A DNA stretch of 22,017 nt from Escherichia phage vB_EcoS-885R8, in the sequence record ON470602; one strand, given 5' to 3'. Positions 21,538 to 22,002 of this stretch are shown here, piece after piece. A program made the translations under genes and the position numbers. A model generated the notes under the pieces. That model made no database searches, had not been told where the DNA came from, and saw nothing but the letters and a program-made list of their open reading frames with translations. How positions within the stretch are numbered: position 1 is the first letter of the stretch; the number at the start of each line of letters is the position of its first letter.

Positions 21538-22002
21538 TTACTTTAAACACTGCTCGGTTATGTATTGCTGAGCACCTTCAAGTTGGGCCTGCATCATTAC
21601 CAGTCGTTCCCGGAGGGTGAAATAATCCCGTTCAGCGGTGTCTGCCAGTCGGGGGGAGGCTGCATTATCCACGCCGGAGGCGGTGGTGGCTTCACGCACT
21701 GACTGACAGACTGCTTTGATGTGCAACCGACGACGACCAGCGGCAACATCATCACGCAGAACATCATTTTCAGCTTTCGCATCAGCTAACTCCTTCGTGT
21801 ATTTTGCATCGAGCGCAGCAACATCACGCTGACGCATCTGCATGTCAGTAATTGCCGCGTTCGCCAGCTTCAGTTCTCTGGCATTTTTGTCGCGCTGTTC
21901 TTTGTAGGCGATGGCGTTATCACGGTAATGATTAACAGCCCATGACAGGCAGACGACGATGCAGATAACCAGAGCGGAGATAATCGCGGTTACTCTGTTC
22001 AT
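21538..22002 (-). CDS. Rz: i-spanin Rz (lysis); track ORF starts at 22014 but [12 protein letters not shown]... matches the lambda Rz start
   Basis: N-terminal TM segment ([16 protein letters not shown]) then coiled-coil; close to lambda Rz along its length. Confidence 0.9.
21597..21782 (-). CDS. Rz1: o-spanin Rz1 (outer-membrane lipoprotein), embedded in Rz in the +1 frame
   Basis: 61-aa [27 protein letters not shown]... with lipobox VVGC and a proline-rich body ([15 protein letters not shown]), entirely inside Rz. Confidence 0.9.

Follow-up and report, generated by a model that had tools for sequence, protein, structure and literature searches.

Phage lambda Rz sits in the inner membrane as a type-II protein and has two coiled-coil domains, and lambda Rz1 is an outer-membrane lipoprotein whose proline-rich region is essential (PMC5295617). 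Homotypic disulfides are formed at C99 and C152 of Rz and at C29 of Rz1, function requiring either Rz C152 or Rz1 C29, and the spanin complex, which reaches across the periplasm, is proposed to fuse both membranes (PMC5295617). In the lambda genome (NC_001416), Rz is located at 45966-46427 and Rz1 at 46186-46368. Lambda lysogens with an Rz-am or Rz1-am mutation turn into spherical cells that fail to lyse when Mg2+ is present. In most embedded spanins the o-spanin spans 0.4-0.5 L to 0.9-1 L, and the extreme C-terminus of Rz1 has been reported to be dispensable for complex formation (PMC6139136). A second described locus is that of the cryptic Rac prophage of E. coli K-12 (rzpR pseudogene, rzoR and trkG), in which a deletion took the holin and endolysin genes together with the initial ~6 codons of Rz, turning Rz into a pseudogene with the joint at about Rz codon 7. 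A literature search on rzoR with the Rac prophage returned nothing relevant.

The window analysed here is a stretch of 22,017 nucleotides from Escherichia phage vB_EcoS-885R8 (record ON470602), and all positions given below are those of the window unless another genome is named. At its right end lie two nested genes which are considered, with very high confidence, to be the two-component spanin (Rz/Rz1) of a Rac-type lambdoid E. coli prophage. The gene structure, family membership, motifs and genomic context of the pair were read directly from the window and from matching loci, and comprise the following features:

21538..22002, minus strand: Rz (i-spanin, inner-membrane spanin subunit), 154 codons and a stop, from the open reading frame (ORF) list, Pfam, PHROG and the alignment to lambda.
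21597..21782, minus strand: Rz1 (o-spanin, outer-membrane lipoprotein spanin subunit), 61 codons and a stop, from the ORF list, Pfam and PHROG.
21934..21990, minus strand: N-terminal transmembrane segment of Rz (Rz codons 5-23), from Kyte-Doolittle hydropathy.
21723..21734, minus strand: lipobox V-V-G-C (Rz1 codons 17-20), from a regular-expression match, Cys20 being predicted to start the mature protein and to carry the lipid.
21790..21795, minus strand: Shine-Dalgarno-like AAGGAG inside the Rz coding sequence, from direct reading of the sequence, its function being presumed.
21999..22017, minus strand: 3' end of an rrrD-type endolysin gene (last five codons, LWGQQ, and TGA stop).
21538..21612, minus strand: Rac-type 3' module (the final ~25 codons of Rz and ~5 of Rz1), which diverges from lambda and extends into the trkG region.
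19943..21400, minus strand: trkG, the gene after the lysis cassette (Pfam TrkH, E 5e-145; named trkG in identical loci).

In the ORF list of the window (21000-22017), Rz starts with an ATG at 22002 and terminates with a TAA stop ending at 21538, and Rz1 starts with an ATG at 21782 and has its stop ending at 21597. The minus strand carries both genes, a point that the initial annotation had left unstated, and the right edge of the window is therefore the upstream side of Rz. The Rz1 start is located 220 nt past the Rz start (220 mod 3 = 1), that is, in the +1 frame, and Rz1 lies wholly inside Rz (nt 221-406 of the 465-nt gene, or 0.47-0.87 L), a placement close to the range published for most embedded spanins (PMC6139136). 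The claim that a 61-codon Rz1 ORF at 21597-21782 is nested in Rz was exact in its coordinates as well as in its frame. The AAGGAG motif precedes the Rz1 ATG by 7 nt and is identical in the DNA alignment with lambda. Two antisense ORFs on the plus strand (21565-21702 and 21716-21832), which are short, unsupported and opposite a conserved gene, were set aside as mechanical ORFs. A promoter and terminator scan of 21300-22017 gave 2 promoter-like sites for 1.3 expected and no terminator, and an Rfam scan of 19500-22017 (E up to 1) gave no RNA family.

The possibility that the 61-codon ORF in Rz is open by chance and has no protein product was considered on the basis of codon shuffling: in 503 of 5000 shuffles of the Rz codons (10%), an alternative frame held an ATG-initiated ORF of 61 aa or more. 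Since a length reached this often is not significant, ORF length was dropped as evidence, and homology and conservation were used instead. The encoded protein matched PF06085 (Lipoprotein Rz1 precursor) with an E-value of 2e-19 and 69.5 bits, for a curated cutoff of 27.9, over profile positions 1-40 of 41 (Rz1 residues 20-59), and matched PHROG 3198 (« Rz-like spanin ») with an E-value of 3.5e-29; it is also 96% identical to the experimentally characterised Rz1 of lambda. A nested ORF with a lipobox was kept in all 80 related IMG/VR loci (L006-L085), which encode Rz at 91-99% identity, four of them with a GTG start on Rz. In more diverged members of the same family having the same embedded architecture, namely 933W, cdtI and Cronobacter phage phiES15, Rz is 68%, 77% and 43% identical to that of the window and Rz1 52-73%, and the nested frame is open in all three. 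The lipobox Cys20 (in five homologues), Cys29 and the proline positions of Rz1 are invariant in these diverged homologues, so that the nested protein is conserved where Rz identity is only 43-77%. Together with the strong AAGGAG 7 nt before the Rz1 ATG, these observations leave a chance origin of the frame with a negligible probability and effectively refute it; as far as sequence comparison goes, the reality of Rz1 is settled by homology and conservation, not by length. As a difference in gene order among these relatives, the ant gene of the Stx phage 933W sits between endolysin and Rz.

The features of Rz1 fit a lipoprotein. Its N-terminus, MRKLK, is basic (net +3) and is followed by a hydrophobic core. 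The VVGC lipobox fits the pattern [LVI][ASTVI][GAS]C with the cysteine at residue 20, as judged by a rule-based regular-expression test only. The residues at +2 and +3 are Thr-Ser, with no Asp at +2. Under the Lol sorting rule, Asp at +2 is the inner-membrane retention signal, and Rz1, having Thr at this position, therefore lacks one. The mature protein would comprise 42 residues, 10 of which are prolines, including PPPPP at 32-36, and it retains Cys29. The lipobox and the proline-rich body that had been noticed in the initial reading are both present, and Rz1 is predicted to be an o-spanin of the lambda Rz1 family, a lipoprotein located in the outer membrane.

For Rz, the highest 19-residue Kyte-Doolittle mean (2.61) was found at residues 5-23, with no second hydrophobic stretch in the protein, and the position of this segment in the alignment is that of the lambda Rz transmembrane domain (PMC5295617). 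A type II topology (N-in/C-out) would follow from the one described for lambda (PMC5295617), and two periplasmic coiled-coil helices (CC1 and CC2) joined by a linker are likewise predicted, as Rz aligns to lambda Rz without gaps at 93% identity. Cys99 and Cys152 are both present, as in lambda. Rz matched PF03245 (Phage_lysis, Bacteriophage Rz lysis protein) with an E-value of 3.7e-53 and 179.5 bits, for a cutoff of 25.4, over profile positions 1-125 of 126, and matched PHROG 13 (« Rz-like spanin ») over its full length with an E-value of 9e-78. The NCBIfam scan of Rz and Rz1 gave no family match, the only signal being a sub-threshold PspB on the membrane segment of Rz; this blank is a gap in that library and not counter-evidence. 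A sub-threshold Pfam match to DUF2681 was disregarded, as it probably reflects the membrane segment and helix only.

A different role for Rz is implied by matching phage records that label it « endopeptidase Rz » or « Rz endopeptidase from lambdoid phage », in which case Rz would be an enzyme cutting the links between peptidoglycan and outer membrane, and not a membrane-fusion subunit. This is judged highly improbable, as no peptidase family match was obtained for Rz in Pfam, NCBIfam or PHROGs, and as lambda genetics points to coiled coils, a proline-rich region and intermolecular disulfides, in agreement with a fusion model (PMC5295617).

Comparison with lambda revealed the same embedded +1 architecture with an identical offset (Rz1 from Rz nt 221), and protein identities of 93% for Rz (gap-free) and 96% for Rz1. 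The two loci have in common the transmembrane segment, Rz Cys99 and Cys152, the VVGC lipobox, Cys29 and penta-proline of Rz1, the internal AAGGAG, and the ATGA overlap with the endolysin stop. Alignment to lambda Rz/Rz1, which had been proposed as a check of the pair, was therefore in its favour, the functional cysteines being kept. Across the Rz/Rz1 overlap the DNA is nearly base-for-base identical, with two single-base changes with respect to lambda: T>G at Rz nt 225, which leaves the Rz protein unchanged and substitutes L2R in Rz1, and C>T at Rz nt 242, which alters both proteins (A81V in Rz and L8F in Rz1).

The likeness to lambda at the DNA level falls from near-identity to about 60% past Rz nt ~390, and the 3' module that begins there is identical to that of K-12 Rac. 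Five changes at Rz nt 391-399 with respect to lambda are silent in Rz and rewrite the Rz1 tail from ERG (60 aa in lambda) to GNDW (61 aa in the window). The last 20 codons of Rz carry the substitutions I135V, T136M, K139A, T144A, K146Q and N149T, and the protein ends with CLK (154 aa) instead of the CR of lambda (153 aa). These differences place near Rz nt ~390 a mosaic junction that switches to a different module than that of lambda. Among the 80 IMG/VR loci, a GNDW tail always has trkG downstream, and bor comes after an ERG tail in all loci but one, in which no bor match was obtained. This linkage between tail and neighbour indicates that the junction joins the spanin body to a downstream accessory-gene module. 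The downstream gene is bor in lambda and trkG in the window. Free variation of the Rz1 tail fits the reported dispensability of its extreme C-terminus (PMC6139136).

The alignment with K-12 Rac, which runs from Rz codon ~7 up to and including the start of trkG (~580 bases), has only 3 mismatches; RzoR and Rz1 are identical at 60 of 61 residues (98%), the one change being L8F, and the GNDW tail and the trkG neighbour are the same. The difference lies upstream, where the window, unlike K-12 Rac, has a complete Rz and an endolysin 3' end. No sequence-level difference was found with RzoD/RzpD of prophage DLP12, nor with the « rzoD » or « lysis protein » of E. coli RefSeq genomes. On these comparisons, the pair is the Rac/DLP12-type allele of the lambda embedded spanin pair, already known and present in RefSeq under protein accessions. 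It could be imagined that the Rac-type 3' module goes beyond neutral mosaicism and is a co-adapted Rz-Rz1 interaction allele with a partner specificity unlike that of the lambda/bor-linked allele, or that the intact RzoR of cryptic Rac prophages is kept for a host benefit independent of Rz; little credence is given to such proposals.

The lysis genes upstream of Rz were deduced from the window edge and from identical loci. Positions 21999-22017 on the minus strand encode LWGQQ and a stop, which is the C-terminus of RrrD (...EREICLWGQQ*), and the TGA of this endolysin overlaps the ATG of Rz as ATGA, so that Rz is placed directly after the endolysin gene. The presence of this 3' end implies that the endolysin gene runs off the right edge of the window, with the holin expected just beyond. 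The region 21400-22017 (618 bases) is 100% identical to many complete E. coli chromosomes, and ~1027 records match it at 99% identity or more. Read along the coding strand, identical loci contain, in this order, essD (71 aa), rrrD (165 aa), Rz/Rz1, trkG, a ParB-like gene, and the small and large terminase genes, with rrrD measuring 498 nt and essD 216 nt in NZ_CP023364; extension to the right, which had been recommended as a check, could thus be made through DNA-identical complete E. coli loci and places rrrD and essD immediately beyond the edge. EssD matched PF04971 (P21 holin S, E 4.8e-35) and RrrD matched PF00959 (phage lysozyme, GH24, E 5.8e-46). The N-terminus of RrrD is Gly/Ala-rich and hydrophobic, such an N-terminus being known as a signal-anchor-release domain in the phage 21 endolysin.

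According to these identical loci, only the spanin pair is lambda-like and the remaining lysis genes are phage-21-like, EssD/RrrD standing in place of the lambda S and R genes. The « classic lambda arrangement » of the initial annotation therefore holds for the spanin pair and not for the rest of the cassette (PF04971, PF00959). Its statement that endolysin and holin must lie beyond the right edge is borne out for this locus, by the rrrD 3' end in the window and by rrrD and essD in identical loci; the word « must » is too strong in general, because K-12 Rac has the same Rz1-trkG segment and yet lacks everything upstream of ~Rz codon 7, and because the type of endolysin also varies, the upstream endolysin being lambda-R-like in some related viral loci (IMG/VR). 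The proposed boundary of the lysis cassette was confirmed, the Rz stop at 21538 being followed by an AT-rich spacer of 137 nt and then by trkG. The G + C content of trkG is 0.33-0.42, versus 0.50-0.54 in its flanks. This potassium transporter gene, located between the lysis cassette and the terminase genes, is a known accessory gene of Rac prophages, apparently acquired from elsewhere.

In the proposed mechanism, Rz would be held in the inner membrane by an N-terminal anchor, as a type-II protein whose periplasmic domain is mostly helical. Rz1 would be made in the +1 frame within Rz from a ribosome-binding site of its own; after export it would receive its lipid at Cys20 and be sorted to the outer membrane, into the inner leaflet. 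Rz and Rz1 would bind to each other via their periplasmic C-terminal parts, giving a complex that spans the periplasm. After the holin (phage-21-type EssD) and the endolysin (RrrD) have first cleared the peptidoglycan, the freed Rz/Rz1 complex would collapse and fuse the inner and outer membranes, which would be the final step in lysis. From lambda genetics and biochemistry, this pair is credited with lipidation, complex formation, disulfide-linked dimers and membrane fusion.

Whether such a role is still played depends on the state of the prophage. The genes could be intact and nevertheless be relics of a defective (cryptic) Rac-type prophage, no longer used in lysis, given that the cryptic K-12 Rac, with its truncated Rz and deleted holin and endolysin, is the nearest relative that has a name, and that the tail genes of the window include an odd partial duplication and a fusion ORF without a collinear counterpart in complete genomes. 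This interpretation is thought unlikely: both reading frames are intact and the endolysin 3' end is present, DNA-identical loci contain a complete essD-rrrD-Rz/Rz1 set together with terminase, portal, coat and tail genes, near-identical sequence has been deposited as phage genomes (vB_EcoS-... records), and faulty assembly may account for the odd tail region. The reading as a two-component spanin is preferred, with the reservation that, owing to the duplication or chimera in the tail-gene region (about 1384-3604), the prophage may not be fully functional.

In this tail-gene region, ~1.6 kb (roughly 1564-3194) are absent from phage record ON470585, which is otherwise 99.98% identical. The insert at 1564-3194 contains a second copy of part of tail gene L (about 89-91% identical), and in an ORF at 2735-3604, which arises from this second copy, the N-terminal half of L is joined to a tape-measure C-terminal domain. 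A tandem repeat of 191 nt is found at 1384-1754. The layout of 1384-3604 had a collinear match in no complete E. coli genome, and therefore stems from chimeric assembly or else from a rare rearrangement. At both of its limits (1 and 22017) the window stops exactly where the « partial genome » record ON470585 stops, and its right limit is also an end of ON470581 and ON470587. These breaks fall in sequence common to several lambdoid prophages (tail gene I on one side, the Rz/endolysin junction on the other), which suggests that the window ends are short-read contig breaks at repeats.

The Rz/Rz1 pair marks the end of the late lysis cassette in a Rac-type lambdoid prophage; this matters for annotation only, and no new biological question is raised by the pair. 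In DNA-identical RefSeq loci, either Rz is named « lysis protein » or Rz1 is named rzoD (WP_001228688.1), with one nested gene per genome. Examples of such one-gene-only annotations, both DNA-identical to the window, were found in two matching loci at 6139-6603 (L001) and at 3198-3383 (L002), and several phage records label Rz « endopeptidase ». Both nested genes deserve annotation, with RefSeq listing one only and the phage records using the term « endopeptidase ».

Two observations concern neighbouring genes. Between trkG and the small terminase gene, two adjacent genes occupy 18089-19805 on the minus strand: one (19014-19805) encodes a protein with a ParB N-terminal domain, and the other (18089-19042) matched a TET-associated glycosyltransferase family (E 8e-35); this gene pair could be a DNA-modification module. 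To the right of the window, in the complete genome with an identical locus (L001, 10436-12618), an « S8 family anti-phage peptidase IteS » is annotated ~4 kb upstream of the lysis cassette, past two tRNA genes (Gly and Thr) and a DUF1133 family gene, the latter being annotated as antiterminator Q in phage record ON470595.
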